In this document: piece after piece, positions 3,333 to 62,510 of the stretch
Layout of the letters: every line of letters begins with the position of its first letter
Position numbering within the stretch: the first letter of the stretch is position 1
Assembly: GCA_003344405.1 (NCBI GenBank)
Contig: NOWV01000017.1
Span: 186,001-250,000 of the forward strand
Direction of reading: 5' to 3'
Length of the DNA stretch: 64,000 nt
Origin: Trichoplax sp. H2
Taxonomy: Eukaryota
The notes under the pieces: model-generated
What the model was told of the DNA's origin: nothing
Databases searched by the model: none
The model's input: the letters and a program-made list of their open reading frames with translations, nothing else
Position numbers and translations under genes: made by a program

Positions 3333-4042
3333 TAACTTTAATAGTGTTAAGAGTAAATGGCTGGTACAATATCACAACTTGTAGGACTGATTGTATAAGA
3401 TTTTATGATAACAAGTAGAGTCTATGCTGTTATGGTAGTCAATCGATTTAAATTTGAATGGTTTGATATCTGTAACTTTAATAGTATTAAGAGTAAATGG
3501 CTGGTACAATATCATAACTTGTAAGACTGATTGTATAAGACTTTATGATAACAAGTAAAGTAAAGCTGTTATGGTAGTCAATCGATTTCAATTTGAATGG
3601 TTTGATATCTGTAACTTTAATAGTGTTAAGAGTAAATGGCTGATACAATATCATAACTTGTAGGACTGATTGTATAAGATTTTATGGTAACAAGTAGAGT
3701 CTACAGTATACTGTCGTTGTAGTCAATCGATTTAAATTTGAATGGTTTGATATCTGTAACTTTAATGGTATTAAGATTAAAAGGCTGATACAATATCATA
3801 ACTTGTAGGACTGATTATAGAAGATTTTATGATAACAAGTAGAGTCTACAGTATACTGTCATTGTAGTCAATCGATTTCAATTTGAATGGTTTGATATCT
3901 GTAACTTTAATAGTGTTAAGAGTAAATGGCTGGTACAATATCATAACTTGTAGGACTGATTATAGAAGATTTTATGATAACAAGTAGAGTTGATGCTGTC
4001 ATGGTAGTCAATCAATTTCAATTGAAATGGTTTGATATCTGT
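3333..4042. repeat. Tandem array of 5 copies of a 139-145 bp unit
   Basis: Unit begins TAACTTTAATAGTGTTAAGAGTAAATGG; copies start at 3333, 3473, 3612, 3757 and 3902. Confidence 0.95.
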
Positions 4043-5770
4043 ATTGGCGATTGCTTTACAGCAGGCGTAGCAAAATGTTTGCAAAATAAAATGGTCCTTA
4101 ACAATGATCGATATTGTAGCCAATCTAGTCTAGATTGCAATCCTATTATTATTTTCCACCTACTTTTGAATCGATAGCTTATATTAAGATTTCCAACGGA
4201 TAGCAATCAGCACGTTCGATAAAGATGGGCTAGTTTAGAAGGAAAGGGCCAACACGAAGAGCATTCCCACACTCTAACACCAAGAGGCTGCACTGATGAT
4301 TATTGAACCCTTAATAATGAAAGGCTGAAATTCAGTCCTGATACGTTGGTATGCTTGTGGCAGTGGCCCAACCCAACTTTCCTGATCGGCGATTGGTACG
4401 TCGCAACGCAAGTGTATGACGTCATGATGGCCAGCCAAATTGGGAAGTAAACAGTGCTGCGAGCTCGGCTGCTCGATAACCTTGGCAACACCAATAGTAA
4501 AGCACGTCGTGAAGGTAGAAACGCTCAACGTTATTGTGAAGTAATATTTCAGGACGAGAAGAAATGTTTCATGTTTGCTCATTGGCCTGATCTCCACTCC
4601 AGCAAAAGAGAACGAGGAAAATAGTAGGGATGAGTCCATTGAGCAAAGATTTGTTCTCGTCCTGCAACATTGTCCACTCCAGTAGCTGCAATGCAGTAGT
4701 CGGTTTAGAACGTAGCGTTCCTATTAAACCAGTGTGATTTATACTGTATAGAGTAAGTACATAACTGTAGTTGTTAAGTAACATAGTCCAAGTTCTAGTG
4801 TACTGCATTGAGCGGTGGACCCCAAAATTGGATAGAAATTTTAAACGGGCAAAATATTGATTCCAAAGCAAGTACTCTACTGTTCTCTACCGCGTATCGG
4901 TGCTCACGTACTACAGCTGTGAACGGCCTCTCATTTCGTCGCTACAATTCAGCAATCACTGTTAAGCCCAGGTTTTTTCTTTCTTTCTTTCCTCGTAGCT
5001 AAACCCTAGTCCATGGACTTGTACAACTATACTACTGTCTTTGTAAAAGTCTATGGCTAAACCATCGTGCTGTTCATTTATTAGAAGATCATGGACGCTA
5101 GGTCTGTCAGCGGTTTGGTTTCATTTTAGATTGAGTACAGTACAGTATGATCTGTCTACGAGTAACTACGCACTCTCTGTCCGTTCCGTTCCATACGGTC
5201 TACTCGCTTACTCGCTATCATCTGTACAGTTTTACAGTAGAGTACATGAATATGATAGCTTGGAAAGACACCATGATTGATATTCAAGATGATGAGAGGA
5301 TGAAGAGTAGGTTTATTTGTAGATTGAGAATGAACGCACATAGGTAGAACGTTAGAGAGACATACAGGAGGAGGCTACTACCAGACAGACAGAATAGGAA
5401 TCTATCAATATGATACAGTACAGTACTGTACTGGATCATTGAGACGTACAGTTAGACTGCTAGCATGTGATATCACTTATCGATGTACACGTGGAAGGTA
5501 TTGGATGCACATAGTACACATTATACTGTATATCTGTACGGTGGTTATAGAGTGTGTATCAAATTATTTTGCCACTTTGAAAGGAATCAACCAGTGATCT
5601 TAATAAACAAATACTGATTAAAAGTTGTTATATGCCATAAAACTATCATTCGACGATAGTTTTACTGTATTTTTAAAGAAAAATATGGCCCGAAAGTGAT
5701 AAAATGTTATGGAACATACTGTACAGTGTACAGTGTACAGTAGGCTGTCCATTCATATTACAGTGTACAG

Positions 5771-6049
5771 TACTGTAATCAAAGAGATGGGAGGTGAGCC
5801 TGCTCAGTGCACGCTCTGTTTCGGTTTCGGCGGGCACGAGAGCAAGGGAGTTTAAATTCCATTTGATTTGATGTTAATGAAACAAGACCTTGTATAAGTT
5901 ATGCCAGGGACTTGGAATAAAAGTTCTGATGATGGTATGAGCAGCAACGACTCAAGTAAAAGTGTTTACTTTCAAGTCAACACTTGATCAATCCCTACTC
6001 TTACTGTTGTTGTTGGCAGGGCGCGCTGTCCAGTCATCCTGCTACAGTA
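5771..6049 (+). ncRNA. Candidate long rod-like structured RNA or decayed fold-back element, family unknown
   Basis: About ten colinear stems centred near 5917, e.g. 5812-5820/6015-6023, 5863-5871/5972-5980, 5899-5906/5933-5940 and 5907-5913/5921-5927, with many G-U pairs on the + strand. Confidence 0.4.
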
Positions 6050-6304
6050 GGGTGTATCATTCTAGCTGTACAGTACAGTAAACTGACCAGTAAAATAAGA
6101 GACGATCGTTTCCTATCGGGGTCTCAGTACTGTACACATCCAGTAGACGAAAATCCATTGTACCTCCGTCCACGCTATACAGTATAGACAGTGGCTACTG
6201 TTGTATGGCACATACTATACCTTATTGGACTAGCAAGAAAACTTGCTAGTCCAGTCTTGTAGCCCTTAGTCCAAGTGTCGGCGTCCAGCCGAAAAGATTC
6301 CAAC

Positions 6305-9300
6305 ATGGCTTTGCAATATAGTATGCGACAAGATCGTCCTATCAATGTCCAGCAACACTATAATGTGCCCAATTTACAGCCTGTCTCCATGGCTTGTAAG
6401 TATTGTCATTTTATAGTCCAAGTCAATTGATATTTTGGTCGTTGTTGTCCGTCGGCCAGGCCATTACTGGACTAGTGTTGCCTTTTCTTCTACCTTGGTC
6501 AATGATGGATGATTCAATACTGCGCTAAAATTCTGCTTGTACCTTAATGATGAAAATCATGTCGGCTACGTTGAAATGTATACGAGTAGAATGGTAGTCA
6601 ATGGAATAAGATTACTACGTTAGTACAGTTTAAGTTGCACAAGAGTACAGTGTATGTACAATCTTAGCTAGTCACATTGAAAGGTTGACAGCCAGAAATA
6701 CTATCGATTTAGAGACTCGTTGTCTACGATACATATTGCAGTATTTTACTGGACGTCAAGTTACTGGCCAACGTCTTCAATCGTCATCCAACTCAAAATC
6801 AACAGGATCTATGTCTTTCCAGTCGTATTACATAGAAATTTCTACTTGTTCAATGGCCTTCTTGTTACTTACAGTACTGACAGTTATAGCATTCTTAGAA
6901 TGAATTGCATTACTAACCAAAAGAGATTACTGTACAAAGGAACTGGAAAATATCCTGTAGACCCTGTATTACAATAGGCAAGAATATCTTGTAGACCTTA
7001 TATTACAATATGCAAGAATATCCTGAACACCCCAAAGTCAACTAAAATTATACGCCAAATTTGGAGGCAATCTGCCATGTTTCAGTATCCAATCTTGGAA
7101 CATCCAATGCAATGAATCTCTAGCCTTACAATCATCATACTATCAAATTGTATCGTCATACTGACTCGTAGAAGCTTTATGCATTCTTACAGGCTACAGC
7201 ACGTCTGAATATAACAGAATCAACCTTTCATTAATATTTTTCTAACGAGCAGTTTAGACACGTACAGTAGCTCGAGATGCTTCTTACGAAATCACTTATA
7301 ATTATGCCAACTATACTATTAATCTATCAATACTAGATAGTTTATTTAAAACAATGCTGTCGCTGATACATACTGTACTGTACTGTACTGTAGTCAAGCA
7401 GTAAATTCACTTTCTACTATAAACGTAGATTATACGATATATTGTCGATGGACTGTAGACCAAAGTCATCAATAATAATCACAATTACATCGTTGCATCG
7501 ATTATGTATCCCGTGTAATTTACAAAATATTAGATTGTTAGCTAGTAGAACTAGTTCAAAATCTCGTAAAAATTCGAGTGAATCGCACTTGTTTCATGCC
7601 ACAAAATGCGTCAGTACCGTACTACTTTGATGATAAGTTTGCTGCTAAAATTGCTTTTCCATTTTGGTAATTTGAAATGCTTGGTTTATGATTATTAATA
7701 ACACAGCCTACAACTACCCTTATCAATCTTCCCCCGATGTTGGTAAACCGGTAAGATCTCGTAACTTACGTTGCAATAAATTAGAATAACCTTATAGTAA
7801 TCGATGTGATTAGTTAGGTGATAGCTACATTAGCATTGCTATTCCTAGCCCTAGGGTACGAGCTACTACACTGTATTATGCACAATATTTTACATCCTTA
7901 TGATTCGTTTCGGTTATAACCGCTACAGGCGGTTGTTCCATCGTAGATGGAAGAGGTGACATAATACTAAAAGATTATAATGACTTTAGTAAACAACTAT
8001 GCAGTTAAATTAAGTGTAGTTGCTCAAGTTAATTCTTTCAATTACTAGGTACAAGTAAACCAATCTCTTCAATGGAGTTCACCACAGCAGCTGCAGGCAC
8101 CTCCGCGTTATCAAATTGGCGTCACACAGGTAGGAATCGTATTATTTGACTCTAATTTCCTTAATTTTGAACCATTTAGTTTCCTATATCATATTAATCT
8201 AATGTCAAGACTGTAGAGGATCACTAGATCAGTAATAGTTGAATATATTAGAACATAACTCTTAGCACGATCATATAAATCAATTATTATCCAACATCAG
8301 TTACACCTCTACACGTTGCTTCGTTAAAAGCTAAAGATAATAAAAAGAAGTATGTCACATTAATACCAGTATGTTACACAAATATATACAATAGTATAAT
8401 TTACATAGTTGTTAGTGGCTCTACACTCAAACTGTTGTTATAAAATTTAAACCACTTTATACGAGTATTCAATAAATTGGATAATTTTCTGTAATACCAT
8501 TACTATTAATATTGCTATAATAATCGACTTTTATCTCTTACCAGCAAAATAGGAATTTTGTTGTTACATTATTGCACTAATTTGAAATTGCAAATATGAT
8601 TTTAATTAATTATGATACAGTTGCTACTGTCAGTTGTTGTGTCATGTTCTACTACATTATATATGGTATAGGAAACTTCAGACTAAGAATACTGCATAAT
8701 TTAAGATTTACCGTTTACTAATTTCACATACAGCCTCGTATGGAACCGACTAAGCCTCCAAAAGCACCAGAGAAACCTCTTATGCCATACATGAGATACA
8801 GTAGCAAGGTTAGTAGTAAATAAATGAATTTTTATACTTCAAGTCAGCTAGGCTAGAGACTGTATATCATTTTCATTAAGAGTCCTTATATTAGACATGA
8901 TAATAAATTCATAGATGTTCGAAAAAGTGAAAGAGCAACATCCTGACTTAAAACTATGGGAGATTGGAAAAATGATTGGTGCAATGTGGAGAAATCTCGA
9001 TGATAAACAAAAACAAGTAAGACCTAAACTAAATATGTATAGATACAGTTTAAGCTGTGATTTACAAACCGTAACGTCAGCTTATTAAAATAGATAAAAG
9101 TTACATAGAATTGCCTTCTACACTTTTGTTGATACAGTTAATTCACTTCTTACCCTACCCTATAGGAGTACTTTGATGATTACGAAAAAGACAAGGTTAT
9201 AATTCTTTCCCATTTTTCTGATAGTTATCCACTGTTTAGAAATTCTCATTTTGTAACTTCTAAAACCTAAAATTTAGAGACAATATAATGAATCTGTAAA

Positions 9301-10572
9301 AGCATATCAACAATCACCTGAATATCAGGCCTGGGTTATCTCCAAAGCAAGAAATAATGCTCCCCCTATACCGAATCCGAACCCGAACCCGAACCAAAAC
9401 CCAAAACCTCAAGGTATAGATGATACATTTTTACAATCCCTATTGATTATAGGTTTTGCTATGAATTAATGTTTCGATTGATATCTATTGTGTATGTATG
9501 TCGTGATATGCAGTAGTTCGTTCAGCACAAGATCAGCAAATATACGACAAAGCAATGCAGCATGCAGCACCTTCTGCTCCTGTAAGATTTCTTAATAGTA
9601 CTTTATTTTATACTTACTATTGATGTATGCTTATGACTATAATGGGAACGTTAATAATGTTCTGTTTGAATGAATAGCTACCAGAGCCTCCTATTAGTAT
9701 GCAAATTATAGAAGATGAAAGCGAAGGTAAAATATATTACCTAGCTGGCTTTGCTAGGTTTATTTGTTACTGGGTATAATGATTCCATTCGCTTTATATT
9801 ACAGAAAATGAACTGACGGAACAGCATATTGCTGCCGCACGTTTTTACAGAAACAATATATTAATGAATGAAATTTTCAGTGACACTGCTGCACGTGAAC
9901 CTAGCTCAGGTAAGATCATAAAGTTATAACCAAAAAGTTTGGTATATGCAGAATGTACTCTTAATTTTGACGTAATATTATGAATGCCAACAGGGGCCAC
10001 AGATGATCGCGTAAAAATATTAAGAGATCGACAAGAGTCTCTTAAGCAAATGCAAGTAAGTGGCAAGCAATGAAATTTTATATTACAAGCAAAATATTGA
10101 TTTTAATATGATCTTTATGAGTAAAATAATGACTACATTAATTTACTTGGCGATTGAAAAAAATTAGAAAAAGCAAGAGAAAGAACTACAAGAATTACAG
10201 GAAAAATTTGAACAAAAGAAGAGGAAATACGTGGAAAATGATGAAAAGTTTAGAAATAAATTGAAAGAGGTAATCACAACTTTTATCCCATATATTTATG
10301 TATCTATATGAGATGTAGTCATGCAAAATTTATTTATATTATAGCATAATATGGCATAATTAAAGTATAAAGATTGATACAGATTGCTATTGATCATTTT
10401 AAGGAATACGAAGTTTTACACTACATCAGCTATCAAATACTACTGTATACATCATGATAGCGGTTGATTTGAGTGTGTATTTTCTTTAACGTTTATGCCC
10501 TTTCTTTAACGTACTCAATAGTTGCGTTCGAAGAAGGAAGAAACTAATGCAGCGTTGAAGAAAGCTTCTTAA
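6305..10572 (+). CDS. SMARCE1: SWI/SNF (BAF) subunit BAF57, HMG box plus coiled coil; spliced
   Basis: Exons 6305-6395, 7707-7750, 8049-8129, then [19 protein letters not shown] / [28 protein letters not shown] (HMG box), [20 protein letters not shown], a coiled coil and stop TAA at 10570-10572. The three 5' exons are less certain than the core. Confidence 0.9.
6949..7031. repeat. About 2.4 copies of a 34-bp tandem repeat in SMARCE1 intron 1
   Basis: AATATCCTGTAGACCCTGTATTACAATAGGCAAG repeated with few mismatches. Confidence 0.8.
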
Positions 10573-11641
10573 ACAATGTTGTTCAAAATAATGTGATCTA
10601 ATATCTGTACCATGTAACCCGAAAAATCGATGTTAATTAATTAAATTAGGTCAACGCTATATTTTGTAGAATAATATTAATGTAAGAGGAATTTGATTAA
10701 TCTTCATATTACTATCTAATTGTTTAGCACAGCCTGAAAGTTATGGTTTAGGTTAGTAACTATTAATTTCCCGTACATGTAGAACGTCCTTCAACTTAAC
10801 TTAACGTATTAATGTATGGTTTAAAGTTTATCGTTGCGGTACAAATGCTAATGTGTAAAATTACTGTATTCTTAATGTTTTGTAATTGATATTACTGAAA
10901 TGTAGGACAAAGCTCTCGTAGTAAATTAAAATCATGGCAATTTATTTGCTGAATCTTGATGTAATGTTGACCAAATGTTGCTAATTACTGTATTATATTG
11001 TATAACAAGTAAAACACCTATCCGACATTATATTGTACATTCCTGATATTATTGTATTGTATTGAAATACATGTAAAATAAAATACATGACGTACTCTAC
11101 ATGGTAAGATGCGGGTTTACCAAGAATTGCTGTTAAACAGATTGATAATGCTGCGTTCTGGAGTATGCATTCATTATAAAGTACAATCCGGATCACTTTT
11201 ATATATTCGCTATTAAAGATCTCCCATTGCCTTACAAAATCCAACAATTTGGCGGTATCGTTATTATAGTATATGTAATTGTACTGGTATATGGTTCTAC
11301 GACATTTCCCGCCGCTATCCCATAGACAAAATAGTATACGTAGAAATTGTTGATCTTAGAATTTGACTTCTCTAGCAGTAAATAGCATTTCATCAACAAT
11401 AATTTTGAGGAAACCGTAGAGTGACGTGGATAGCCTCTTCAAATCTGGCAAAGTAATTCCAAATGTCATTGAAATTTTACTCAGCACATGCAATTAGTAC
11501 AACAGTAAAAGCTGGAAATTTGTTGGATGTATTTGTTAAGCTGAAAGCACGAAGTTAAAGAGGAGAAATAAAATATTTTTCTCCCTCAAAGGGGAAAGAT
11601 GCGAACACGACACGTCTTGTCTATGGATTCCATTAAATTCT

Positions 11642-11738
11642 ATGAGAATTTAGTCATTCACGGCCATACCACTCGTACATTCGGTATGTGTAGCAGACTA
11701 CTTAATGCTGTACGATCACGCTGACTAAAAATTCTCGT
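11642..11738. other. ~97-bp fold-back (hairpin or small MITE-like element)
   Basis: Nested inverted repeats ATGAGAATTTAGTCA/TGACTAAAAATTCTCGT, TCGTACA/TGTACGA and GTAG/CTAC. Confidence 0.5.
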
Positions 11739-12331
11739 CTACTTATATGAGTATAACAATATATACAACATCAGATTAGACGTTAGCTGAAGGCGCTCTT
11801 AATTATTATTGTTTAATGAAAGTCATCAACAGATTATGATAAAACTGTAATGTGTAATTGACCTGACTATATCTTATGAATCACAGATAACATAAGTTTT
11901 ACGTTTAATTAATTTAAACTATGTGACTAAATATACCAAATTATATATGACTACAACAGTTAATTATGTTCACTTCGAAAGACGTACCCTATCAGTCCTA
12001 AGTGACGGTATCAAGAGTTAAAAATATTCGTAGTACCAGTATATTAGCGACATATTTGTTGAATAGCAAATCTAGTGTGGTAATCCTAAAAGTACTTTTC
12101 AGTAATGTGATAGTTTTAACAGTAGTGTACAGATATAAACCGCACGAATTTTCAACTCAAGAATGTTTTGGCAGCGGAATTAATTCAGAATAAAATAAAA
12201 ATATATATTAATATGTAACATTAAAACAGGTATCAATTTTAAGGTCCTCTTTATCTTGTTAAGCCGTTTAAACAATTCCTAAAAATTCTACATTCTACAA
12301 GATTAGGTTAAAGTTATACACTACATACAAA

Positions 12332-15300
12332 CTAGTATAGAGCTAACTTTTCAATAATTAATAGGTAAGATTCTTCGATTGCTTTATAGCTATCATTAAG
12401 GAGCTGTACTTTGTCTTGGCTATTTGCTTGAATTATCGCAGCATTGTACTCCTCGGGCTTCAAAAATTTTTGTAACTTCAACAAGTCTTTTTCTTCTTTC
12501 TAAATTCAATAAATAATGTTACAAAATGATTTATATTACAAGGATGAAGTAAAGAAATCTATTTTGCGTGATCAATTTTCGATATTAATACTCTCTTAAA
12601 ATCTAGATAAGATAAGTGTTGTTTAAATACCTTGAATGGCTGGCTAAGCCTCTTTTTAACATAACTTTTGTAAGCCAGATACTCTTTAGCATTACTTCGA
12701 TCTGTTGCTTTCAAACGGAGAATTTCATAAACTCTTCTTGCTTGTTTCTATAAACGGAAGAGTTACTTTACTATTACATATACATAAGTTTAATTTTGTG
12801 CTGTGTCGCCTATTCCACTGGTGACTAAGATTTTAATATCTAACCAAACGGAGTATTTTGCAATAGCAACATACGCTGTATACACATACATACGTACTGT
12901 AGTCGCAGTGGAAAGTTTACCTTATGAATCTTAAGTTTTTTTCGTGCCTCATTAGCCATATTCTCGTTGAATCCATCATGTAGATTTTGATCAGAATATG
13001 CTGGTAGCTTTGCGCAACGACGGCAATCAACAAAGTCTCGTAAGCTTATGAAATTCTCAGATGGATCCTCCGCTAAAATTAATCAAATGAAAGGGTGTAA
13101 ACAAGCGGCAACAACGACTAATATTCTACTAATATCAATCAATAGATACTCATAGGTATCAATCTAAATAACTATAAACAATACCTGTGATATCTAAAAT
13201 GTTGTCATCCTTTTCTGCCAGTGAATAATAACTTTCTAATAACTTAGCTTATGGAACGAAAAAAGTTAAGAAATTAAATCCGATCGGAATATTTCATAAA
13301 CACAATAATTTCATACCTCCATGACCATTCCTTTGATATGGTGGTAATATAATGATTTGACTTGAAATTTGCATTATGTTACAAAAAGAAAATAATTAGA
13401 GACTTTTATTACTACAGATGAATAAGACTATATACAGTATACATAAATTACATCATTGACATTTCAATTTAGTTATTTATTAATTTATACCTAATTCTTG
13501 ATCGAATCTTGTCGGGGTATGCGTAATAGTTATAAGAGGTCATATATCCAATGATATCATAACGAAAAGCATTGTGATCCTTCCGCTTATGGTATCTGTA
13601 CATATACATATAAGTATCGTGCATTATAATTTTATGTATCATAAACTAGGATATATTTGATATACGATAGTATTGTAAGCACCATTTAATTAGCAGACTT
13701 CCTGTAGACTTTTATAACATAATTTTAAGTAACAGTTGAGTGTTTCGCACGAACTTACAGTAAATAAAATGTCCATTTTTCGTCGTCATCATCTATTTAA
13801 TTAAGAAAGAGGTGTTAAGCAAATTAAAATTCTTAACATCTGGGCTCGAACCTGTTATTATATCAAGCCATGATTAAGATATAGTTAAAACGAAAGCATT
13901 TTCAGATTTACAGAAATTACTTAACATAACTTACCGATAAATGAAGCAGTTTCAATATACCAAATCAGAAAGGTTCTAAGTCTCTCGTGGTATGCTTTAA
14001 AGCCGGGTATATCAACGTTGGCCTTCGTATAAATACGATACGTAAATCAATAGTTATAGAATTAGCCAGTACCGAAATACTACATAATTTATATAATTTT
14101 TTGAGCTAGTTTTAATTTGGCGTAGTTCCACAAAACGCATTATTCGTTCTAAAAATTTAGGTTAAACTCTTTTTAAAGGCAAAGAAGCAAACGAGCTCTA
14201 TATTAATTTACCTTCCTAATCTCAAATGTTTGATCGTCCAATGAATAGCTATTGATTATCTCCCCGAACGGCTTAAAATTACTCTCTTCCTTTTCTAATA
14301 CACGCATATATTCATCCTGATTGGTGTAAAAACCTGCAATGGACAATATAATGCAAGACAAATGAAAAAAAGGAAAGGTTACTCCTGCGATTAATTTAGT
14401 AATACTGTATCATACAAAAATGTAATAACAATTGTAAGCATTTGCTGGTTTAACCGACCTTGGGGTAAAACATCTGATAAAATTTGAATAATATCGTCGG
14501 CCTACAAGAAGTAATTGGTATATTTTAGTATAACAATGTACACGATGACAGAAGTACAATAGGATCAAAATTAGCATTATCCTACACTTGAGAGCTGCGA
14601 TTATGACATAGCAACTATAGCACTATTTAAAGAACTAATTACAGTACAAATTATATCTTGCTTTTGTTCAACTTTGCAATAGAAGCAGTTAGTTATTAAA
14701 TTTGTCAAATTGTGTAGTATAATATAATATCTGCTATAAATGTCACCGAAGAAAAAAGAACACATATTTATAAATTTTATTTTCTATAACTACGCTGTAC
14801 GTTAGTAACTTTAGTTATTTGAGAAAGATGGTGAAGTATGCTTTTAGATGTTGTACTTAAAGATGTGAAATGAGTGATGTTTTTTTTTTTTGGAAATTAC
14901 TAACTTTAACACCGTCAGAAGTAGACGGATCAATTTTCTGTGAATATGTGAATCCAAAATAAGTTAGGAGGCTCGAAGATCCATAGTATAACTAGATCAT
15001 ATAGGAATAGAGGATCGGAATATTTTGTTAATATCTTGCATGATATGTTAGCAAATGATAAATTTTAAATTATTCCTTGTTACAGTTTTCATTATTAGCT
15101 ATCTGGATACGCAAGTATCCTGTGTGAGATATAGACCAACATAGATTTAATCGAGGTAACTCAGTCATATACATATATTGCACGAAATGCATAACAAGCT
15201 AAGTACTTTTTTTAAAATTAATTGCTTATCACCTTGATTTCCAAATCCTTATATCCAAATATCGCTTCACTAGAATTGAGATTAGATATTGACATCGTTA

Positions 15301-17222: not shown

Positions 17223-17275
17223 TGCAGAAATTTACGCGGTCTTTTTTGGACTTGTGCGCATGTAGGGCATCTTCT

Positions 17276-17445
17276 AGTACAGTAGTTTGTATGATGTCGA
17301 TTGGACGGTAGGTGGACTGAACTCAGACAGACGGATCCAGAGTCAGACTGGAATGATCAACAACGCCCTACTGTACAGTGTACAGTGTACAGTACTCTAG
17401 TAGACATACAGTACTGTCCTGTTCTGTCTGTACTGCAGTCTGTAG
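17276..17445. promoter_or_regulatory. TACAG/CTGTA motif cluster upstream of HAT1
   Basis: TACTGTACAGTGTACAGTGTACAGTA and neighbouring units lie 55-220 bp 5' of the ATG; a regulatory role is inferred from position only. Confidence 0.45.
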
Positions 17446-29561: not shown

Positions 29562-29615
29562 TGGCATCCCTGCAAGCATGCAACACCTGAATCCAGGAGA
29601 CCCCTTTTAACGGCG

Positions 29616-43129: not shown

Positions 43130-43220
43130 TCAAATAGCTGCTCATTAATTCATTCATTAATTAATGATACTGCTGAGATGATGCAATCTAGTGTGCCACT
43201 ACAGTACTGTACACAGACTG

Positions 43221-43339: not shown

Positions 43340-43818
43340 TACTGAATCATAGTCATGACTCAGAAAGCTCTACAATGCACAGTACATGACGCTACAGTAC
43401 TTACTGTAAAAGAAAGAATGAAAGTACTGTACTGTATCGTACGGTACGATACTCTATTCCCATTCAGCCAGGGACCAATGAAGGCTTCAAAGCTTGACTT
43501 CTATACTGTACAGTACAGTACAATACAGGAGTGAAAATCCAGCAGTGTTTTCAGCACACGGCAAGTTTCCAAATTTGCCATTTTCCAGTTCCTGTACAGT
43601 AGCAAGTTTTATTTTTAGTCATGATTGTGCTAAGGTAAAAATGACCTACCTGGATATTTCTTTCCCACCAAGTTAAAGTTGCCCTTATTAGGTGAACAAT
43701 AACAACATCCAAGCTGTGTATTCGTCATTATCTCGTGGGGATATCATTAGTAACAGTACAGTCAGTCAAGAACCTTTCCATAGCCGGCAGTCACTCCTTG
43801 AACTTAATCAATCTCGAC

Positions 43819-50010: not shown

Positions 50011-53000
50011 ATGGTAAATGTTTACCGTATTTTAATGTCTCCACTCTCCACTTTCAACGTCTGTGCACAGTAATGACTAAAATCATCTCCTCAAGTCAAT
50101 GATAAAGCACAGACTTGTTAAAAAGTCCCTCCAGAAAGTAGGTACCGTCGTACCTGTATACTAGTCTATAGTTACCAAAATATTGTAAACGTTTGCATCT
50201 ATACTTTCTACAGTAATTACTAAAATCGTCCCCGCGAGCCAATGATAAAACAGGGACGTCTTAAAAGGTCCCTATGTACTAGTCATTTGTTACCAAAATA
50301 TCGTAAACGTTGGCATCTGTACAAGTATACGTGTGCTTGATAAATTCCATTTCCAACATCAAAAAGTGTTTATTTTCGCATAGGTGTTCGTTTTCAATCC
50401 ACACTCACTCAACTTGAAGATAAATACTATTTCAATTTATTGAATTTTTACCATCACCTATAAACTTTACATGATTGTTAATGATACATCGATGCAACTG
50501 TTATCGTCTCTTACTATTGCCTCCGAAATTTTAATTGTCCTTGTTTTGTAACTACAGTACTGTATGTGTTCCTGGAAGATAAATAATTAAGTATGTGTAA
50601 AATACGATCTTTACATCCTTTAAAGCACGATCCGTAAAGGCTTTTTTTACCTCTATGGTATGATCCTTGTTAATAGATACAGACTGTAGTAAATTTTGTC
50701 ATTATCCAGAATTGACTTTTCTATTATAAGCTACGCTAAAGGCTACCTTTTTCAAGATCAAAATGTTATTATCGCTGCGTTAGTGCCTTCGACTACAGTA
50801 CTGTTACTTGTAGTTGTACTGCATATGAGTGTTATAGATAATGTCGGGTAATGAATAGTATCGAAACTATCCGGGTAGCAACAGCAATTAGATAATAACT
50901 AAGATCAGTCCTACTAGGAGAATTAGGGGATAACACCAATACTATCCTGGATACCTCTAATGCTATCCATAAACCGATATTACACATAACATACCAGTAA
51001 TCGATTGTACTGTTAGCGTATAGTTATCTGAGATTAATTATGGATATCATGCTTCAATTAGTATTACAGTAGATTCAGTTAATTAACACTATTCAAACAT
51101 TAGAATAGAGTAATAGAAATCAACAATATGTAGCTACGAACAGCTACTAACGTTAATTTATGTACAGTATGTACGCCCATAATGCTAAAAGTCGCTCCGT
51201 ATGGCAAACCTTACCTTCAGGATTTAGGGCTACCACTTACAATATCTTCTTGTACGCATGTTCGCTGTAAATAGACAAATGTTATAATTAGCTTAAGACT
51301 AAAAATGCATGCTTGTTGGTATCAACAGGACCTCATTCGATCACCGAGGCTTAAGCAGGAAGAAATAGAAATGAATCAACAAGATGATGCTTCTACGTCT
51401 AGCCAAATCGGTACAAAATTGTCAATAATATACATATAGCATGTTTATAGGATATTTACTCTACTGTAAATGAAGCCTGTCTTCTAAGATGATTACTCAT
51501 AAGCTGACTTTAGCTATTCCTTGATTAAGTATCTCTCCGTGCTGATTTCTAAAACTACAATAGATGATATTATCTCGTAGTCATAAATCAATTTATGATA
51601 ATAGCTCAAGATACAGAAATGCTCTGATGGGCTACGGTATTTTATTAATTATATACCTATGTAATACTCATCATTTCAGTCATCTATCTTTGGTCTGGTA
51701 TTTAGACTATAACCATGATTAATAGGTTAATTTTATATATATATATATATATCTGTATAAGGAATGTTGCTAAATGCCTGTGTAATGAATATGTAAAATA
51801 TCCTACAGTTTTTACCATAATGTTACAAACTTATAGATATTGCACACAGTAATAACATTTAATTTGTTATTGTACTAGCATTGCTAACTAGATGTATAAG
51901 AAATAATAGTTAATTGATACCATTTAATATGAAACGTGAAATAATATCAAATCACGTTGTAATCGTTGCTATAAATCGATTCCAAAGTAACTACTCCTTT
52001 TTTATACAAAATCTGACGTATGTAGTGGATCCTTATTTTACTGATCAACATGGAGATGATCTGAATGATGATGACGAGCAAGATGTTCAAGACCCTTTAG
52101 AAAGGAAACGGACGGCACACTCAATTGCTGAACAGAAGCGACGGGATGCGATTAAGGTTGGTTAAATTCAAAAATTTTCGTCCCCTGATATAAACATAAT
52201 CACTTACAATCTTCTTCTATATAAAAGCATGCAACTGTTATTCCTTTACTCTTTGAAAAATCTAAAATTTAATATATTAAACAAAATAGAAAGGGTTTGA
52301 AGATTTACAAACGCTTTTACCAACGCTTCGAAATAGCAGCAACGCCGGACAAAAACATAGCAAAGCAATCATATTACAACGGGGTAAATTAGAAAAATCA
52401 TTACCCGATAAACGTCATCGATAATTAAGATATAAAAGTAAATCTTCACATTGCTTATCGTATCATTCTGTTTAACAAACGAAATAATTAGCCGTAGAGT
52501 ATCTACAGTATTTAACTGAAGATAGAAGAAAATTACACGAACAATTAGATCAATTTCGAAAAGAAGTTATGGCCTTGGAAATTATGAAAACGTAATGCTG
52601 TGATAAAACTGTGATAATTATAAATTCACTATGTTGATGGAATTGACAGAGCTAAAATATTGATCAATTAACTGTTAATAATAATTCCTCTGTTGATTAG
52701 AAACTACGAACAAATTGCTCGAGTACATAATCAGGTAAAATTTTATGCTTACTTGCTATATATTCATGAATATCCTAGTAGTAGTGTACGTATATACACG
52801 GGTTAACTATTTAATTTAAACCTACTATGCAATCTTTTGTATACTCGAAACATTCACATATATTCTAACTGATTAATCATTCATATTTTACTTCTTTCAG
52901 CCACAACAAGAGAGTGGTATCACTGATGAAGAGCAATTCGATGCGGTAAAGCTTGGCTTAGGATGATATTGCAGAATTTCAAGCACCATTTACAGATATG

Positions 53001-53391
53001 ATGATGTATACAATACACTATCCTTTCTTGTCTAATAAACTAATATTTTAATTCTTTTTGATTCTTGTCATCGTGATGCACGAAACCTGCACAGTTCAAG
53101 AGTATTATGGATACACAGTTTCAAAGTTTCGATAGTTCGGTCAATTTAAGTAATTTCGAAGCTTTATCTGGTAGCATAATTAATTGGTTGGAATCAAGTT
53201 GGAAACCTGAAGTAGGTTTCGTAATTTTAATATGTATAATGAATTATTGGCTTTGCATTTTCTTTGGACTAAAAAATTGTATCCTATGCTATATAAAAAT
53301 TCTACAATTATAGATGATGCAGAACGCGTTGGCTAACTCTCTACGAGCAATGAATGAACCAGACCATTTCAAAACCAATCGACCATCATGA
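50011..53391 (+). CDS. MLX: Max-like protein X, bHLH-ZIP plus DCD; spliced
   Basis: ERKRTAHSIAEQKRRDAIKKGFEDLQTLLP, KHSKAIILQRAVEYLQYL, RKEVMALEIMKTNYEQI and IMDTQFQSF...NFEALSGSIINWLE; stop TGA at 53389-53391. The start (CACC-ATG|GT at 50011, joined to exon 51329-51410) is inferred. Confidence 0.9.
50068..50322. repeat. Two diverged direct copies (~110-135 bp) in MLX intron 1
   Basis: CAGTAATKACTAAAATC...GTTACCAAAATATYGTAAACGTTKGCATCT at 50068-50203 and 50211-50322. Confidence 0.8.
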
Positions 53392-54170
53392 CACCTGTAT
53401 GAAATTCGATTGCGATAAATGTCTAAATAACATAAAGAGGGCATCACCAACGATTTTTATACGAAACTTTTAACTATAAATTAATAATTGATGACATTTT
53501 GCACGTCACTAATAACGCTACGTGTATATCCTATTCTTGCGTATACTTGTAGCGATGAATCAGAAGAAGAACAAAAGTTACTTAGCATGTTTAAGTGACG
53601 TACGAGAAGGAGCGCATTCTATTTTCATGATTCGATACACCCTTAAAGATGACGTAGCCATCTGGTTTTATTGACAATTGAACTATTAGTCTACTTTAAT
53701 TGTTACATTTGATGGTTCAATTGCCAACAAAATATTCAAAAGATTTCCCTGCTAACTTTTTAAATATCTTTCGAATATAATTTTTAAAAGTTAGCTATTG
53801 TAATTTGTAGCTACCAAACGAAATATTTACGTAAATATGTTTATATTCTATTAATCTCGCAACAGTTTCGTTAAATAACCTAGCTCCATCGATTATTTAC
53901 TCTATTACCAGTAACATTGCTAAAGCTGTATCACATTAATACACTTATATATTATAATACTCTAATAAGATAAATTGACATAACCTTAATGTTACCGTAA
54001 ACTCTTACCCTTTACTTCAAAATGAATTTTAACTACGGTATTATGGTTGCATATTATCAATTTTTATATCTAGCTCAATCTACTTTAATTTTTCACGTGA
54101 AAATAGTTTGTTGACAAGTTTATATCAACCTCTATCGCACTTTGTTGTGTAATGTATGTATGACATTAAA

Positions 54171-57100
54171 TCAGAATAATTTATCATTCAGCAAAATCAG
54201 ATTCTCAACAACAAGGCGTTGGCTTCTCATGTCGGTTAAATTTTGCCACCCTTCCTCGCTGATTGGTGTTTTCATAATCGAAGGACCAAATACTACGCCA
54301 AGGTTACTTGCACTCATCAAATTTTTATCTTCGTGTTTGATAACTCTGTAATACATTTGTGATATTGCAGCACTGATTATCTTTATTGCTTTAAATAGTA
54401 ACTAAGATGTCATACGTTTATCTTTATTACCGTATATGATACGATCTATTATTTATAGTTCCAGCATATGGATACTAAAATATCTTTCTGTATATATATA
54501 ACGTTAAGTTTTCATTGCGAGTGTATTTTACCAGCTTGTTATAGCTTACCTATTTAAGTGTTGAACTAAGTGCTTTAACATATCGTAATGGGCAGGCGGA
54601 AGAGCCGACAATAACTGTTTCAATGTATTGACTTTATCTATTTCATGTTTCATATCTATCGCAAAATTTCCATAATGAGCGTTATCATAATTATATTAAC
54701 GACTCATTGATAAGAAATTCTTAACTTCAAAATATCGCATTAAAATATCACTTGAAAAAAGACCTGCCAAAATTTTCTTATCTACAATGAATTACCACAT
54801 GATGTAATGATAAATTTTTACATACCCACTATTTCGATAAAGGCATTGTACTGATGGTAAGGAATCAAAGGTACAGGCAATTCTCGAAGGTATAATTTTA
54901 GAAGACTAGTTATAACCTGAATATGAGGATATAACTGCGGTGTCAATTCGACCTTGGTATCGTCTTCAGTTTGCAAGATCAGGAGAAATTAATTATTAAG
55001 CAGTGATCAATATCATAATGCATAAAGTCAATCATTACTTAACCAATCCTGTCTGATATCAAGAATTAACATTATGCTCGAAAGATAATTTATAATACAA
55101 TCAAAGTCTATATGCACTTAAAGGTGATATACCAAGATCATAGAACTACTCTGATTTATGTTATATTTCCCTTCACGTCGTGACAGTATGGATCTTGCTA
55201 CAATCTCACTTACGCATACATAAAATCAACACTATCTATGGCAATCGGATATTTAAATCTGAGCTAAATATCCTTTGTGGAATATTATTCAAATTTCATT
55301 ACCTTCATCAAATTTGCTCTTAAGTATCTTTACATCCGTTGCAGAGCCAGGCTCTCTGTACAACCCTTCAGTATCGATCCCTTGTTTTTAAAATTATAAA
55401 TGAGGAATGTAAAATAATGGCGAAAAAGTTTACAGCATTTTCAATTATGCTTGTGTATATATACTTGTATAAGAAAAATTTTTCTACTACAAACACTTAG
55501 GATAGTAAAAGAGACGAAATTTTATATCGCATTCTATTCTCAAACAAATTTTCTGGTTGCAAAAGAATAAAATTCTACGTATTTTAACTCATTTTACCCC
55601 AGCTTTCAACAGCTTCCACACATTTATCAAAAACTAGCGGGCGAGGAGTATTGGTCAAGCTTAGTAAGGCAGTTAAATCAATTCCAAATACTATTTAATA
55701 AGTAAAATCAGTAGTAAATAATAAAAATATGCATTGGCCAGTCAGCGTCGTTCTATGTTCATTAAATAACTGGATTCCTGTCGAACGCTCGATCTGTACC
55801 TCGATTTGAAATCTTTTTAGGTGTGCAGCCGGTAATCACTCTGTTAATACATTGCTTATGAACGCAGTATCCACATTCTGGATTCATTATAAAAAATTGA
55901 GTCCGATTTTAAAATAATATTAGGAATAGAAACCAAAATCGAACTAGTATCTAGATGATTATACAGATACAGGTCATAATACTTTATGGTAATGTCATGT
56001 TATGAACGTTGAAGATGCCTAATATACAGTAATATATGCAGCTGATAGTGATAGTAGAATCAGTACACACTGTGAAAGTTTAATGATAGAAAACAGTATT
56101 CTAGATTCTATTACTTTTGCATCTTGCTCCTTGTTGCTTTAGCCCCCACATGAAATTTCGACAATAATCACACCAATGAAAGCCAACAAAGCTTGTCATC
56201 TACGTATATATATGATGTAAAATTCATATCAAGCAGTTAAGATTGCCTGTAATGATGCAACTATTGATATATATCTAGTGCAATATGGACCTTAAATTTG
56301 TGGTTCTCGCTTGATAGAAGAACAGTTTTCTATTAAAATAACGATTATTCGCAATATTATGATTATAATTTTTGATTTAAATCGCTCGAGACCACAATTA
56401 TAGTGGAAGTAAAATAAATTAACTTGGTTATCATGGACCTTTTCAGTCATTCCTTCAATACTGGCATTACTGGCAGTACTTGTATTTCTTTTCTTGTCCA
56501 TCGTTGATTTGCCATCGACGTTATCTACTTGAAAGAAAATTTAGTGATAAATTTCATCCTTGTCTTTAACAGTTGACAAGCCATAGATAATACTCCCATA
56601 GTAACAGAAATCGCTTTGATAGAATAGATAGCACTAGAGCTTTAGATGCTTGAGAAATTGTAGGTATAACATAGCCCTCCTCTCAGATATTACTGTTAAT
56701 ACTACATATAACTGCGGTAGCCATTCTATATCCGAATTTCATATGTATATTTATTAAAGAATTTTGAAACGCAGAAATTTAATGGATGTTAAGACTCATA
56801 TCGTAGAAAATAATACACAAGATTTCATTAATAAAGTTAGATTTGACCAACTAGTGTTATAATATCATAGTATGATTGTGGAATCAATAACTTATAAAAT
56901 TTATGATTTCTGTACCTGCTTCAGAGCCTTTAAAATCTGTCCAACCAAACAGCCTATCAATATAATTTCTACCTTTCGTTGTAACATAGAGCGATATTAA
57001 GCCATCTTCAACCAGGTCATAAACAGTGTCATATTTCTTCTCATCTATATTACGAAATAATTTAATAGTTATAGACCTTCATGAAACTCATTAACTAAGC

Positions 57101-59501
57101 CGTTATTTATGAGATAATGCTATTACAAATATCCTATTTCGGGTGATCACTTTACTCGTAAACTATGCTTTTAAGTAATTCAGTACTGACAAATTCAATA
57201 TTAATACAATATCCATCGCTTTAAATTACCAAAATAGTGTGTGATAAAAACATAAATATGATTGAGAAGTTCTTTACCTATGAAATGGTGTGAGCCATCG
57301 AAATATAGTCGATAATGTTTCACTTCTTTAAACAACCTAGTTTTAATCAAGAATAGCAGTAAATACCTTGTAATACAGTAAAATGAATTAATAAAACGGT
57401 AATATCTATAAATGCCAAGATTGTACCATGATATAAATTTTGAACAGCTGCAATAACCTTGTGCTACCATATAAATTAAGTAAACAATACTGAAAACGAG
57501 AACGATGACAACAGCTATCTTACTTGAATGAAAGAGAATAGTTTCCTAAACTTTTAAGGCTTTCTCTTACTAAGTAAAATCCATCTCGAAGCAGTAGTTT
57601 ATTCGTATCTTCTCTAGCAATGGCACCATGATATCTAATAATCAATTTTAAAGTTAGCCTGTGTCTTACCACAATAAACTTTATATAATTTCAGTTATTT
57701 CATCAAAATTTCTTAGGTCTAGCATTTGAAGTTAACGAATTGAAAAGCTCTCAAGAAACATGACGAATAGCTTTTGCTTAGAACAAAGTAACGCGATGAA
57801 TCACTAAGTAAGATTATTTTAAAGATTAAGAGTTTGATGTGGTAAATTCAAAAATTTACGTTGCCAGGAGATATTTTATTCCACTCGATCTTTAGATACT
57901 AAATATCATTAGCTATAGTATATGATAGTTAGTGTAGCAATTTAACTTAAGCCTCAGCTACGAATTCAACAGTGATATCTTAAAGACAATGATAAATGCC
58001 AACTAAAATTAGTATTATTAAGGCGTTCTGTATCGTTGATACCAAAGTCTATACTGTAACGCATTTGAACTTACTCATTTCCGTAGTGAAGAGGCATTTC
58101 TTGCTAATAAATCGATTGTCGAATATGAAAGTAAATCAGATAGTTAATAGAAGTATATATATATAGTTAGGCAGTCTAGCTATCAAAGATAAATATAATT
58201 GATAGTTAATTAAATGTAATCGTTTAAATCAGAAACCTGTCTTAAACAAGCTACTGGGTGTGGCTTTGGAGCCTCCATTTGCAACTGGCAGACTTTGCAA
58301 TATTGAAAACATTTAAGGTGCCAGAGAATTAATTAATTAATCAATTAATATCAAGGCTTAATTTTTCTATACAGATCCTATCGTTCTAGTAATAAATAGT
58401 GATGCGTCTGTCAGTTTTATTCTTAAAATCGAATTAAAGACTTACGGTAAGACATCCACTGGGTGTTATCTTCTTCCATATCAATTTCTAATAGAAATTA
58501 ACATAGGAAAAAATATGAATTGAAGTATGATACTTGATGAAGGTTACACAGAAGGCAACAACTTATTCGGTCATAGTTATTACTGAATAAAACATGGAGG
58601 GATCTAGGCTTCTATTAGCTGAACTTTTATAGCTAGAAATCAAATTGAAAATCTATCTTTGGGACTATCTTTAGTATAATACAGAAACTAGCAGGTAAAA
58701 AATGAATCGATAATTTTGAACTATGAGGGATTTCCTCTAGCATAACGAAGCCTAATTGTCGAAAGTAAATATACAGAAATCACGAGTATGAACGATTATG
58801 GCTGTAAAATGTTAATGAGATAGATAAATAAAATAGAATAAAGAATATAATTCCTTCTAATTATCCAATATAAATCTACGATCGATTATTTCTAACCTTG
58901 ATTATTCGCCTAAAGGCATGTTAAAAAAATGACCATAATGAATATGAGTCATACGAAGAGGAAACAATTCCCAGATATTGTGATGTAATCCAGTACATTA
59001 AAATAGGGACCGGGAAGAAAATTAATACATGAAAATTATTTAATTTGTCGATTAGATGCTACTCTTTGTAATATTATAATTGAGTTAATATGATCTTATG
59101 AAGTATTTCAGCACTAATGCAACTCATTTTGCTAACGTACGGTGGAAAGACTTTCAAACACCAAATTACAATATTCTTAGGACTTCAAAGACGAAACACT
59201 GCTAAAACTAATGTGAAAATTATATAATGGAATAGAAACTATCGATTTCTCTTATTTTTATCTATCTATTCGAATTGTAAGCATTAATCCTGATGGATAG
59301 ACGAGTTTAATTCAACTGAAAGAGTTAACTATTACTGCAATTTTACAGAATATTCCTTTAGTATATCCTGTAACATTGAGTCACTGATGTATCATTGCGC
59401 ATAGGTCGGCCTAGAGATAATTTGATCAAGTCATCTTTCACGTTATTAAAAATAAATTTATATACCATATCAACGTCATCCAGAGACTTGTTATTATCCA
59501 T
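54171..59501 (-). CDS. Chimaerin (SH2-C1-RhoGAP), CHN1/CHN2 pro-ortholog; spliced
   Basis: [17 protein letters not shown]2 YHGAIARE...GFYLVRES and [11 protein letters not shown]1 H-x12-CDYC...[12 protein letters not shown]...[46 protein letters not shown]. The 5' exons 59501-59466 and 58909-58897 are inferred from splice phase. Confidence 0.92.
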
Positions 59502-60146
59502 GATATCGACGAAAAATGATGAATCGTTTAAGTTCTTTAATAATGCAAATAATAACTGATTTATTCTATATCAATGCTATAACAAGTAATGCCTTATGAA
59601 CAATTAATGGCGAAGATTTGAACTATTGTTACTGTTTAGTATATTAAGCTATAGTCTTAAGTATGTCATGTACAGCATATCGTGTGCACCCTATCATGAA
59701 TTTGTAGCAACTCCACCATTGCAGCATGGGTATATTTTTTAAGCCAATTAGAATATCTGAATACTCATTATGAATCTTAAAAAAATTTTAATAAGATTCA
59801 ACTTGTTGATGTTAACGTGGGCTAACTGGCTTGTGCCACTTATGATGTGATATTTTTACATGCTAATAATATCCAGCTACTGATTTCGGACTTTACAATT
59901 CATAAATGTAAAAAAACTTCAACTTTATGCCACTTTGTTATGATAAAACAGTAGGGTATATTTATGTTTATAAAATTTAGAAAATTGGGTATATCATTCT
60001 AAAACTAGGAGGTGGAGCAATCTCATCACGAGAACGCACAGTCATCTGATTTTATTTAGCATACCCAGGTCATTATCGTAATATTGTAATGGTTTACCGT
60101 ATTGATGGTATGATGGTATTTTTTTCATAATATTCTAATGACTCAC

Positions 60147-60817
60147 CATAATGATAGTATTATTCCTAATATTGAAATTACACAACCAAAAATTGCATTC
60201 CCATATTCTTCTGGGTATACACATATACTATACACGGTCAGGATATGCATAAAGGAAGCCATATACCACTAATGCTTTGCTAAATCTAAAAGTTGTTCGA
60301 TATAATATAGCATGCCATTTGGATTAATTTTATGCAAATATTTATGAGCACAGTTGTTTATCTAAGGGATTCAGGTTGCATAAAAGAAGGATGAAAAGGC
60401 TCAGGATGCGTACATACGCTAATTATTTTTAAGCGAATCGCTCAAACTATGTCATACTAGTATAGTTATATTATAACTGAATCTCTAGTGTGTAGTATTA
60501 ATTCTTTTGGTATTTTAATTTAAGGCATCAAACATACATTTTTGAATGCTATAAAAGTAATCATCAGGCCATAAAATTCCTAGATTAATAATTTATGTGT
60601 TATAACTCTGTATGGTGACATGTCATATTATTTTCATTGCAATCATATTACATAATTGTTTAGACCTATTATACGAGAAAAATTAGTTTATTTTTGCTTC
60701 TACTGAATGGTATGGAATACCAAATCATCTATGAAAACATACTGCTATCAAGAATAGTTGAATATCATTTCTTTGGTATGGGAATATCAGTGCTATAGAA
60801 AGACAAATTAATGATAC
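60147..60817 (-). pseudogene. Candidate pseudogene (or unannotated gene) for a hydrophobic membrane protein
   Basis: Phase-compatible exons 60817-60743, 60579-60538 and 60361-60147 with GTATGT/GTATGT/GTGAGT donors; one in-frame TAG at 60271-60269. Confidence 0.45.
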
Positions 60818-62377
60818 CTAAAAGATTTTTTTCAATAACGAGCTAAACATGCTCTACGAGGTTGCTAAATTATAATGGAGACTATGAAAACATTAAAGAA
60901 CTTTCTTAAAAGCCTTTGATTAGTAATGGAAATGTAGTATCATCACGTTTAGAAAGTGTATATTATACGTATTATTAAATTGGCTTCATATTAAAATTAT
61001 GTAATTATAACAGATTTGATAAATCTTTTTGACCATACCTAATACATATCATAGATCATAAAATATGTAGTCTATAGTAACCTAAATTGTTTACATATTA
61101 AAATTTAACTGCAACCAATTTGAATTGAATTTATTATCATCATAATCATAAACTTACATGATGCTTGATCAATGTACACATAAGAATCAACACTTACAAT
61201 AGCCCTTAACTCCCCTTTTTATGCCACAAATAATAATGATGAATAAATAGCGTAAAGATCGTAAATAGTTTTATTAGTATTAATTTATTAATTTGGAATT
61301 CATGAATTCAACAATTTAAAGAGCGCTTCCAGGAAAAAGGCTGTTACTTAAAAATTAACTGTTTAAACAAGTTTATAGAATTAAAAGGCCAAGTCTATTT
61401 TGGATACAATGGTAAAATTTCTTTGATGTTGTAAATTTCCAACTGCAAAATTTCTAAAAATTACGGTCTTACTGTATTCTTCAAACTGTTACATTAGTTC
61501 ATAAAGTGTATTATGAGAATATCATGAACCGCATCTGATAAAAAGACATGTCCAATCTAAGATATATCTTCAGGTCGAGAGATAATTTAAAAAATATTTC
61601 TTGTAAATCTACGTGACTATAAGATATACTCGTATTATTAAGAAATAATTTATAGTTAGGCAAAAAAATAGTTTATTGAAGTCGTTATTCTTATAATACC
61701 ATTAATACATTTTCAAACTCATGTTTAAGCAAATCTGTAAGTTCAAATCGCGAGAACAAGCAGTTACTAGTCGCTTTTTTCATATAGTATACAGTTTCCT
61801 GGGCATAACATTAGCTATTCACCTAATATCTTCTCAATCCATTTATTGTTCGAGATTGCTACAACGATAAGATTTATAAGCGTTTTCTGATTCTAATATT
61901 TTCAAATGCCGCAAGAACGCAATCTTATGTATTGATATAAATAGTATCGCTTTTTATAAGAATAAAACCGGTTAAAAATTGTAATTATACGAATGACTTA
62001 CTTAACAACGGACTCAAAGGAAAACATTTCATTTTAAGTCAAAAGATTATATATCACACGAACACAACGCATACTCGTATGTGCAATACCTATGTTTGAT
62101 GATCATTCCTAAATACAAAATAAACAAATAATACAATATATTTATTCTATGGGCTTGATGCATCATTGTGCCTATCTCGCACTAGGAAGAGATTTCTATA
62201 TAGTATGATAACCTAATTATGAATTTTCTGTCGATGTAATGCCTTACGTAGAATATATTTCCGTTCATCGATTGGGTATTAAATTAGTATTGAATATAAT
62301 TGGAGTAATTCTGCAGAACGTCTAAATGTCCCTGCTTCTGTTTTAATAGGTTGGGTGGGTGCTGGGTGTGGCAGTGA

Positions 62378-62510
62378 TGTACAGTACTGTACAGTGTCCA
62401 GTACAGTACATTGTACAGTAGCGCATAGTACTGTACTGTACTGTACTGTAAAGCGTACAATTGCACTGTGCGACGTGAGTGAGTGATTGTGCGCAGTACA
62501 GCGTACAGCA
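62378..62510. promoter_or_regulatory. TACAG/CTGTA cluster upstream of the nucleoside hydrolase
   Basis: TACAGTACTGTACAGTG and TACTGTACTGTACTGTACTGTA lie 70-200 bp 5' of the ATG. Confidence 0.45.

Follow-up and report, generated by a model that had tools for sequence, protein, structure and literature searches.

We analysed a stretch of 64,000 nucleotides of Trichoplax sp. H2 (contig NOWV01000017.1, positions 186,001 to 250,000; hereafter the window), which has a G+C content of 33%, contains densely packed genes and carries the heptamers TACAGTA and TACTGTA (together TACWGTA) throughout its length. The domain scan covered 159 of the 363 open reading frames (ORFs) of the window and gave Pfam matches to HMG box, HAT1, TBC, BOP1, Ras, SKICH, RhoGAP, SH2 and nucleoside hydrolase. 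The Ras-family match, in a gene on the minus strand downstream of a triple repeat (38650-39440), is weak. The SKICH-domain protein, encoded by a single exon on the minus strand (40597-42357), is identical to XP_002110040.1 of T. adhaerens at 581 of 587 positions and clusters with it, which identifies the window as Trichoplax DNA. The original prediction, made from the letters of the window, was that the heptamers are accumulated excision footprints of Tc1/mariner transposons.

TACAGTA (79 copies) and TACTGTA (72) are the most frequent 7-mers of the window. Their sum of 151 compares with 14.6 expected from base composition, in line with the roughly 15 estimated beforehand, and with 28.3 expected under an order-2 Markov model. 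The predicted parse into TA-framed units of mixed orientation holds for the whole window: the heptamers fall into 112 tracts, 86 with a single unit, 12 with two and 14 with at least three, built from CAG (79), CTG (72), CAGTG (7) and CACTG (6). Among words of the form TA-x-TA, with x no longer than 7, the CAG/CTG class, which adds five nucleotides to a TA (+5), and the CAGTG/CACTG class (+7) rank first and second (log10 p -92 and -11). The two orientations, which a footprint model would read as its two resolutions, are near-equal in number (79:72), and at the 40 junctions between three-base units the direction switches in 17 and is kept in 23 (p 0.43 against 50:50). Two-unit tracts show the order CAG-CTG five times and CTG-CAG not once (p 0.06). 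The +7 units number 13 against 0.93 expected, and four of them stand alone (p 0.015). Of 46 instances of GTAC-N-GTAC, 43 have A or T as the spacer N, although transitions dominate the substitutions between strains, A>G being about five times as frequent as A>T, so that plain slippage followed by point mutation fails to explain the tracts. The alternative footprint words TACATA, TACATGTA, TACCATA and TA-CAGCTG-TA were not enriched in the window, and TA-CAGG-TA/TA-CCTG-TA remained there at background (3 against 2.3 expected). One-mismatch neighbours of the heptamers reached by transversion are nearly as enriched as those reached by transition. We also observed 19 TACSGTA against 5 expected, with TA-CCGG-TA absent from the window, and 61 TACAATA/TATTGTA against 31 expected, with TATAGTA at background, a one-sidedness that decay of the heptamers would not be expected to produce.

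Many copies stand outside the dense clusters. Six cluster zones were drawn post hoc, after the clusters had been seen, and outside them 53 heptamers were counted against 13.2 expected. The isolated copies described in the original prediction are likewise in excess, since 34 heptamers lie more than 30 nt from every other motif pentamer, where 11.4 are expected under an order-1 model and 17.6 under an order-2 model with the motif kept in training. Relics with one mismatch occur within 25 nt of 0.36 of the lone heptamers and of 0.39 of 593 control TA-NNN-TA sites, and perfect, one-mismatch and two-mismatch neighbours of the 53 lone copies are no commoner than at these controls. The lone copies are therefore neither decayed tracts nor local copies. 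Successive lone heptamers showed no inward-facing bias and no similarity of inner inverted repeats, and on these grounds we rejected the idea that they are ends of old MITEs (miniature inverted-repeat transposable elements).

The outer flanks of the 54 tracts outside the clusters are biased as well. A before and T after the TA occur 54 times against 35, G at position -2 is avoided (8 against 21.5), and a score for AT-alternation gave p 0.0003, with values of 0.18-0.72 for six control words. AT-alternation around the TA is the target preference of Tc1 and Sleeping Beauty. An earlier flank test on 34 sites gave no single significant position; a score combining A(-1) and A(-3) was picked after the outcome at these 34 sites had been seen and is not relied on. 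The positions of tracts, clusters and repeats are given in the table.

Table. Positions of heptamer tracts, clusters and repeat copies in the window (strand as reported; a dot marks features without strand).
Feature	Position	Strand	Remark
All 151 TACWGTA heptamers, in 112 TA-(unit-TA)n tracts	1253..63948	.	count and parse
Stand-alone +7 unit TA-CAGTG-TA	6646..6654	+	tract parse
Stand-alone +7 unit TA-CACTG-TA	7867..7875	+	tract parse
Stand-alone +7 class unit	20465..20473	+	tract parse
Stand-alone +7 class unit	34480..34488	+	tract parse
Four-unit tract CTG-CAGTG-CAGTG-CAG (26 nt), copy 1 of 3	5717..5742	+
Four-unit tract, 26 nt, copy 2 of 3	17369..17394	+
Four-unit tract, 26 nt, copy 3 of 3 (reversed)	38719..38744	-
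Longest tract, 7 units	42618..42654		in densest cluster
Cluster of 25 heptamers, upstream of HMG-box gene (+)	4700..7400	.
Cluster of 5 heptamers, inferred 5' ends of HAT1 (-) and TBC-domain gene (+)	17200..18100	.	starts inferred
BOP1 cluster, 14 heptamers, directly ahead of the inferred gene start (about 29616, +)	29300..29620	.
Densest cluster, 28 heptamers, upstream of SKICH-domain gene (-, ATG 42357)	42380..43650	.
Cluster, 8 heptamers, ahead of a nucleoside hydrolase gene (+, ATG 62579)	62300..62500	.
Tandem array, five copies of 145 bp; the third and fourth exceed copy 1 by 5 nt at one TA	3333..4043	.
Empty TA site, array copy 1	3423..3424	+
TACAGTA in array copy 3, directly followed by TACTGT	3702..3714	+	12-bp palindrome 3703-3714
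Array copy 4, same TACAGTA event as copy 3	3847..3859	+
Triple repeat, about 240 bp, upstream of Ras-family gene (-)	38650..39440	.
TACTGTA in triple-repeat copy 2 only; TG at the site in copies 1 and 3	39085..39091	+

To explain these data we propose an origin in three steps, to which we give a probability of about 0.5: scars of Tc1/mariner-type excision seeded the motif, slippage and palindrome-driven copying lengthened it, and promoters retained it by re-targeting or co-option. In the seeding step, an element of the Tc1/mariner superfamily (Tc1-like or pogo-like) with 5'-CAG ends would have inserted into a TA and later been excised. Joining of two identical 3-nt CAG overhangs would then leave TA-CAG-TA or TA-CTG-TA (+5) and, less often, three letters from one end and two from the other would leave TA-CAGTG-TA or TA-CACTG-TA (+7). 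Such excisions would have occurred very many times, long ago, by families now dead or lost. The canonical footprint of Sleeping Beauty is described as TACAGTA or TACTGTA, a +5 change at a TA that may take either direction (PMC6943129, PMC4378557, PMC8151067), and, as the original prediction stated, its letters are identical to those of the window motif (PMC6943129). The motif behaves like an excision footprint and is a candidate member of that class; no donor was found in the window, and no gain could be polarised with certainty.

The growth step is called for by the long tracts. Independent stacking by random visits to TA sites predicts 0.09 tracts of at least three units and 3.6 doubles, against the 14 and 12 observed, so that hot spots, slippage or template switching at GTAC/TGTACA palindromes must have added units; the earlier proposal that rounds of integration and excision at restored TA sites produced the tracts therefore falls short as a full account. 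Where units meet they form GTAC-centred palindromes and short direct repeats, which could promote slippage and template switching or templated repair in either direction. Once one unit exists, template switching at these palindromes could mix orientations, and for that reason mixed direction alone is no proof of a transposon. The 26-nt arrangement of four units is found exactly three times in the window and is palindromic at 24 of its 26 positions. Around these sites (5715-5777, 17364-17422 and 38683-38749) the likeness runs past the 26-mer by some bases in either direction, one pair being 89% alike over 45 nt, and the three may be copies of one small module. In the last step, tracts would have accumulated near the 5' ends of genes, either because open DNA was targeted anew or because the tracts were co-opted. 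The TA-framed grammar, the excess of lone units, the flank bias, the call for a second process of growth and the 5' clustering are results of this analysis; the transposon, its excision, the chemistry of growth and any function are inferred.

Two sets of paralogous copies had been cited as clean insertions of the heptamer. The sequences quoted at 3423, 3702, 3847 and 39085 were confirmed, and both length differences are exactly +5 and complete a heptamer, but neither case is clean. Copies 3 and 4 of the 145-bp array share a single +5 event together with a G/A change directly after it, which completes a 12-bp palindrome, so that inverted copying from 2 nt away would also yield it; at the site itself, copies 2 and 5 do not match copy 1. 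Each of the three short copies has its own sequence there, while the two long copies are alike, a pattern that slightly favours a gain of recent date. Of the triple repeat, copies 1 and 3 have TG and not TA at the site, and copy 2, the long one there, is alone in having a perfect second ACTGTA 13 nt downstream (39099); elsewhere in the repeat, the motif tract of copy 1 is about 42 nt longer than those of copies 2 and 3. The polarity of either event is not certain. No footprint event occurred in the other paralogous sets of the window (46.4-47.4, 29.0-29.3, 30.0-30.3 and 50.1-50.3 kb), whose indels are of different kinds. These sets include, at 46420-47410, 28997-29283 and 30013-30257, a tandem array of 145/131 bp with about seven copies, one of 94 bp with three copies directly before the BOP1 cluster, and a duplicated short stretch that is acidic and exon-like.

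The 26-mer was also found in five metagenome records with a G+C content of 36-42% and in none of the viral contigs. Outside Trichoplax, an intron-rich metagenome locus with a weak myosin-head match (L002) contains TA-CCGG-TA 17 times (0.06 expected), TA-CSG-TA 8 times (0.46) and TA-CCSGG-TA twice (0.03), partly stacked. This series is what two CCG overhangs would give, and its grammar appears parallel to that of the window. TA-CCGG-TA may rank first there because CG pairs with itself; CAG overhangs could not pair by two bases, since AG is not self-pairing, which matches the background level of TA-CAGG-TA/TA-CCTG-TA in the window. At a second locus (L003), a 740-bp element (125-864) is flanked by a TA duplication and has 20-bp inverted ends starting with CAG (19 of 20 positions match; the best of 60 resamplings reached 15). 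The right end of this element doubles as the first unit of the 26-nt stack that the window contains three times, and its target site is palindromic. To judge from the sequence, an element is seated here on a stack, in agreement with the footprint model, although letters copied from the end of the element would give the same picture. In L004 (1029-1381) and L005 (1084-2158), tracts built from these units have run away to 350 nt and to more than 1 kb, respectively, which shows that the grammar is able to amplify itself. Other elements at these loci are a CAGTG-ended, hAT-like one with an 8-bp duplication, spotted by eye (L002, 1973-2277), a TA-flanked inverted-repeat element of 258 bp (L002, 4417-4674) and an inverted-repeat element of 601 bp (L001, 382-982).

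Several results weigh against an origin in excision scars. The six zones, 10.5% of the window, lie at inferred gene 5' ends and contain 98 of the 151 heptamers (65%), whereas insertion of Sleeping Beauty is described as almost random (PMC4786924). Long tracts are about 150-fold more frequent than independent stacking predicts, and the exact threefold recurrence of a four-unit arrangement is unlike independent insertion and excision. In the flanks of the 54 tracts A is not enriched at -3 (37 against 34), and the empty sites as reconstructed are not palindromic beyond the level of TA sites elsewhere. Of the two empty sites in the paralogous cases, one is TG. In either case a perfect template is present in no copy but the long one, which speaks for templated copying or selection, or else requires homogenisation at a later time. 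L002 and L003 are single loci from other organisms, and L003 was chosen because it contains the 26-mer.

Nor did a donor come to light in the window. No TA-flanked, CAG-ended element was detected in its 64 kb (the best of 737 inward pairs matched at 11 of 17 positions), and none of the 159 scanned ORFs matched a transposase family. In T. adhaerens, 11 mariner/Tc1 relics with best matches to Tc1-like and Tigger elements were reported, three of them with full ORFs and none, in the account given, with inverted ends; transposable elements (TEs) were put at 0.13% of the genome, with about 20 MITE copies, and the depth of that TE search was doubted by a reviewer (PMC2871265). A later study describes Mutator elements at many placozoan promoters (PMC12221973). 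Repbase lists five Trichoplax transposons, which may bear on the question of a donor. If the window is typical, the genome would hold about 200,000 excess heptamers. The densest cluster contains a MITE-like element of 149 bp (42981-43129) with 47-bp inverted ends (91% alike); it was discarded as a donor because its ends start with TCCGG and its target duplication is 6 bp. Off-target contigs are many at 15838-15873 and 17566-17957, and several skip 264-390 nt after 17566. These two places are dispersed repeats without other copies inside the window, and no CAG ends were seen at either depth spike.

Comparison with other strains, in which contigs of four runs were aligned to 4100-24090, revealed a divergence of about 0.6-0.8% substitutions; 12 of 71 indels and 40 of 296 substitutions were listed. 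None of the 12 listed indels is a TA>TACWGTA event, of which the original prediction implied a peak. Five of these (5743-5755) stem from off-target contigs on a repeat, and the only motif-linked one is a direct-repeat change of 17 nt at 5134, beside a two-unit tract, where three runs have 17 nt more. Contig pieces excluded a 5-nt loss at 30 of 32 and at 21 of 25 covered heptamers, and the long pieces that are listed leave room for no more than three 5-nt events. By our own estimate a steady state would bring only about two footprint gains, which makes this comparison a weak test either way; it neither supports nor refutes the proposal and fits a slow or finished process. At 21107 one run has 6 nt more. 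Metagenome contigs yielded no orthologous placozoan DNA (56 pattern matches, none confirmed).

Four other explanations were weighed. The first, which we consider unlikely, is that the motif is the binding site of a dimeric protein, or a nucleosome or insulation signal, with a consensus near A-TACWGTA-T, and that selection multiplied it, mainly at promoters. The 5' enrichment, based on zones drawn post hoc, would follow directly; the symmetric flank bias suits a dimer as well as a transposase, the second change in both paralogous cases improves a nearby motif, and the near-equal enrichment of transversion neighbours agrees with it. Published data point the same way: 54% of ACAGT repeats of T. 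adhaerens lie at most 1 kb upstream of genes and were proposed as transcription factor binding sites (PMC2871265), and a Hi-C model selects ACAGT as a Trichoplax motif (10.1101/2024.11.14.623548), which hints at a functional role. Exact +5 steps, the +7 class, the other-word grammar of L002 and the 26-mer in five other records are not predicted by selection on a binding site, and copies vary freely between recent paralogs. We know of no binding protein for the ACAGT motif. A binding site can nevertheless account for retention without being the origin and, if it were the whole explanation, the motif would still lead toward a placozoan promoter factor.

The second, which seems to us quite improbable, holds that a palindromic repeat feeds itself without any transposon, template switches at TA, GTAC or TGTACA and fold-back synthesis copying a neighbouring pentamer and slippage doing the rest. 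It would accommodate the perfect local template in the long copies of both paralogous examples, the excess of long tracts, the recurrence of the nearly palindromic 26-mer in another five records, of which two contain runaway tracts, and the direct-repeat change between strains. Against it, some 40 lone heptamers in excess stand without a template or relic in their surroundings, other 4-bp palindromes were not so amplified, and the choice of CWG here and of CSG/CCGG in L002 would be left unexplained. Improbable too is the third explanation, that the heptamers are scars of TA breaks made by another nuclease or element, or remnants of CAGTA-ended elements with a deleted middle. The CAGTA-ended element of L003 does have a heptamer at each end, the order of units in two-unit tracts is that of two joined ends, and no donor was found; against this, the lone heptamers have neither the inward bias nor the inner inverted-repeat similarity of such remnants, and to our knowledge no nuclease makes TA breaks of this kind. 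An ordinary (ACAGT)n slippage microsatellite with point mutations at the middle base, under which name the motif was published (PMC2871265), has almost no chance of being the sole cause: the data already contradict it, and its difficulty in giving mixed orientations was raised in the original prediction. Despite same-direction runs (7371-7392 and 62429-62450), the 17-nt indel and the varying tract length in the triple repeat, junctions are split almost evenly rather than head-to-tail, spacers are almost always A or T, most tracts are single units, and lone copies have no excess of relic neighbours.

Returning to excision scars, a wider claim can be put forward tentatively, with the odds somewhat against it: about 200,000 scars of vanished CAG-ended Tc1/mariner elements, inherited via fission, may have become the commonest microsatellite and the promoter furniture of this genome, following a grammar general to eukaryotes. 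Placozoans spread mainly by fission, and fission would make scars of somatic end joining inheritable. In Caenorhabditis elegans, the typical scar is reported to be made in the soma by end joining, while in the germline the element is put back or mixed scars result (PMC13148408, PMC4490562). If the claim is true, the motif flagged as unexplained in 2010 would be explained, and the statement that Trichoplax has few transposons would become that many came and left. Microsatellites and promoter motifs could then be born from repair scars, and lost transposon families could be read from k-mer counts. A word set by the local element ends (CAG here, CCG in L002) would amount to an overlooked mode of writing eukaryote non-coding DNA and to a fossil record of transposons.

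The motif and the excision footprint are each already known, and the connection between both is the new part; no report of this link was found in the literature covered, most subscription journals lying outside it. The motif of the window, an excess of which in Trichoplax the original prediction mentioned, is the published (ACAGT)n microsatellite of T. adhaerens, with 5624 perfect repeats (PMC2871265). The two agree in their word, their genus and their bias toward gene 5' sides. In the portion of that paper available to us, ACAGT is viewed as a head-to-tail repeat, and TA framing, mixed directions, lone units, the +7 class and a footprint origin do not appear. With Sleeping Beauty, a known transposase and donor leave rare single scars, whereas the window has about 2.4 heptamers per kb, stacked and clustered at promoters, and no donor was found in it. 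Sites of the same kind are about 20-fold sparser in the mouse, where 'over 300,000' are reported (PMC4378557). Repair by polymerase theta at Tc1 breaks of C. elegans produces templated inserts that copy nearby letters and is a candidate for the growth step; the scars described there are heterogeneous deletions with inserts and not one fixed word (PMC4490562). A parallel within placozoans is the Mutator terminal inverted repeat (TIR) motif at promoter loop anchors (PMC12221973), which the Chimaera preprint names an ACGG repeat (10.1101/2024.11.14.623548). The Mutator motif lies inside the element ends, unlike ACAGT, and neither ACAGT nor mariner is mentioned in the paper on it; like ACAGT on the reading proposed here, it is a short repeat derived from a transposon that stands at housekeeping promoters and was possibly domesticated (PMC12221973).

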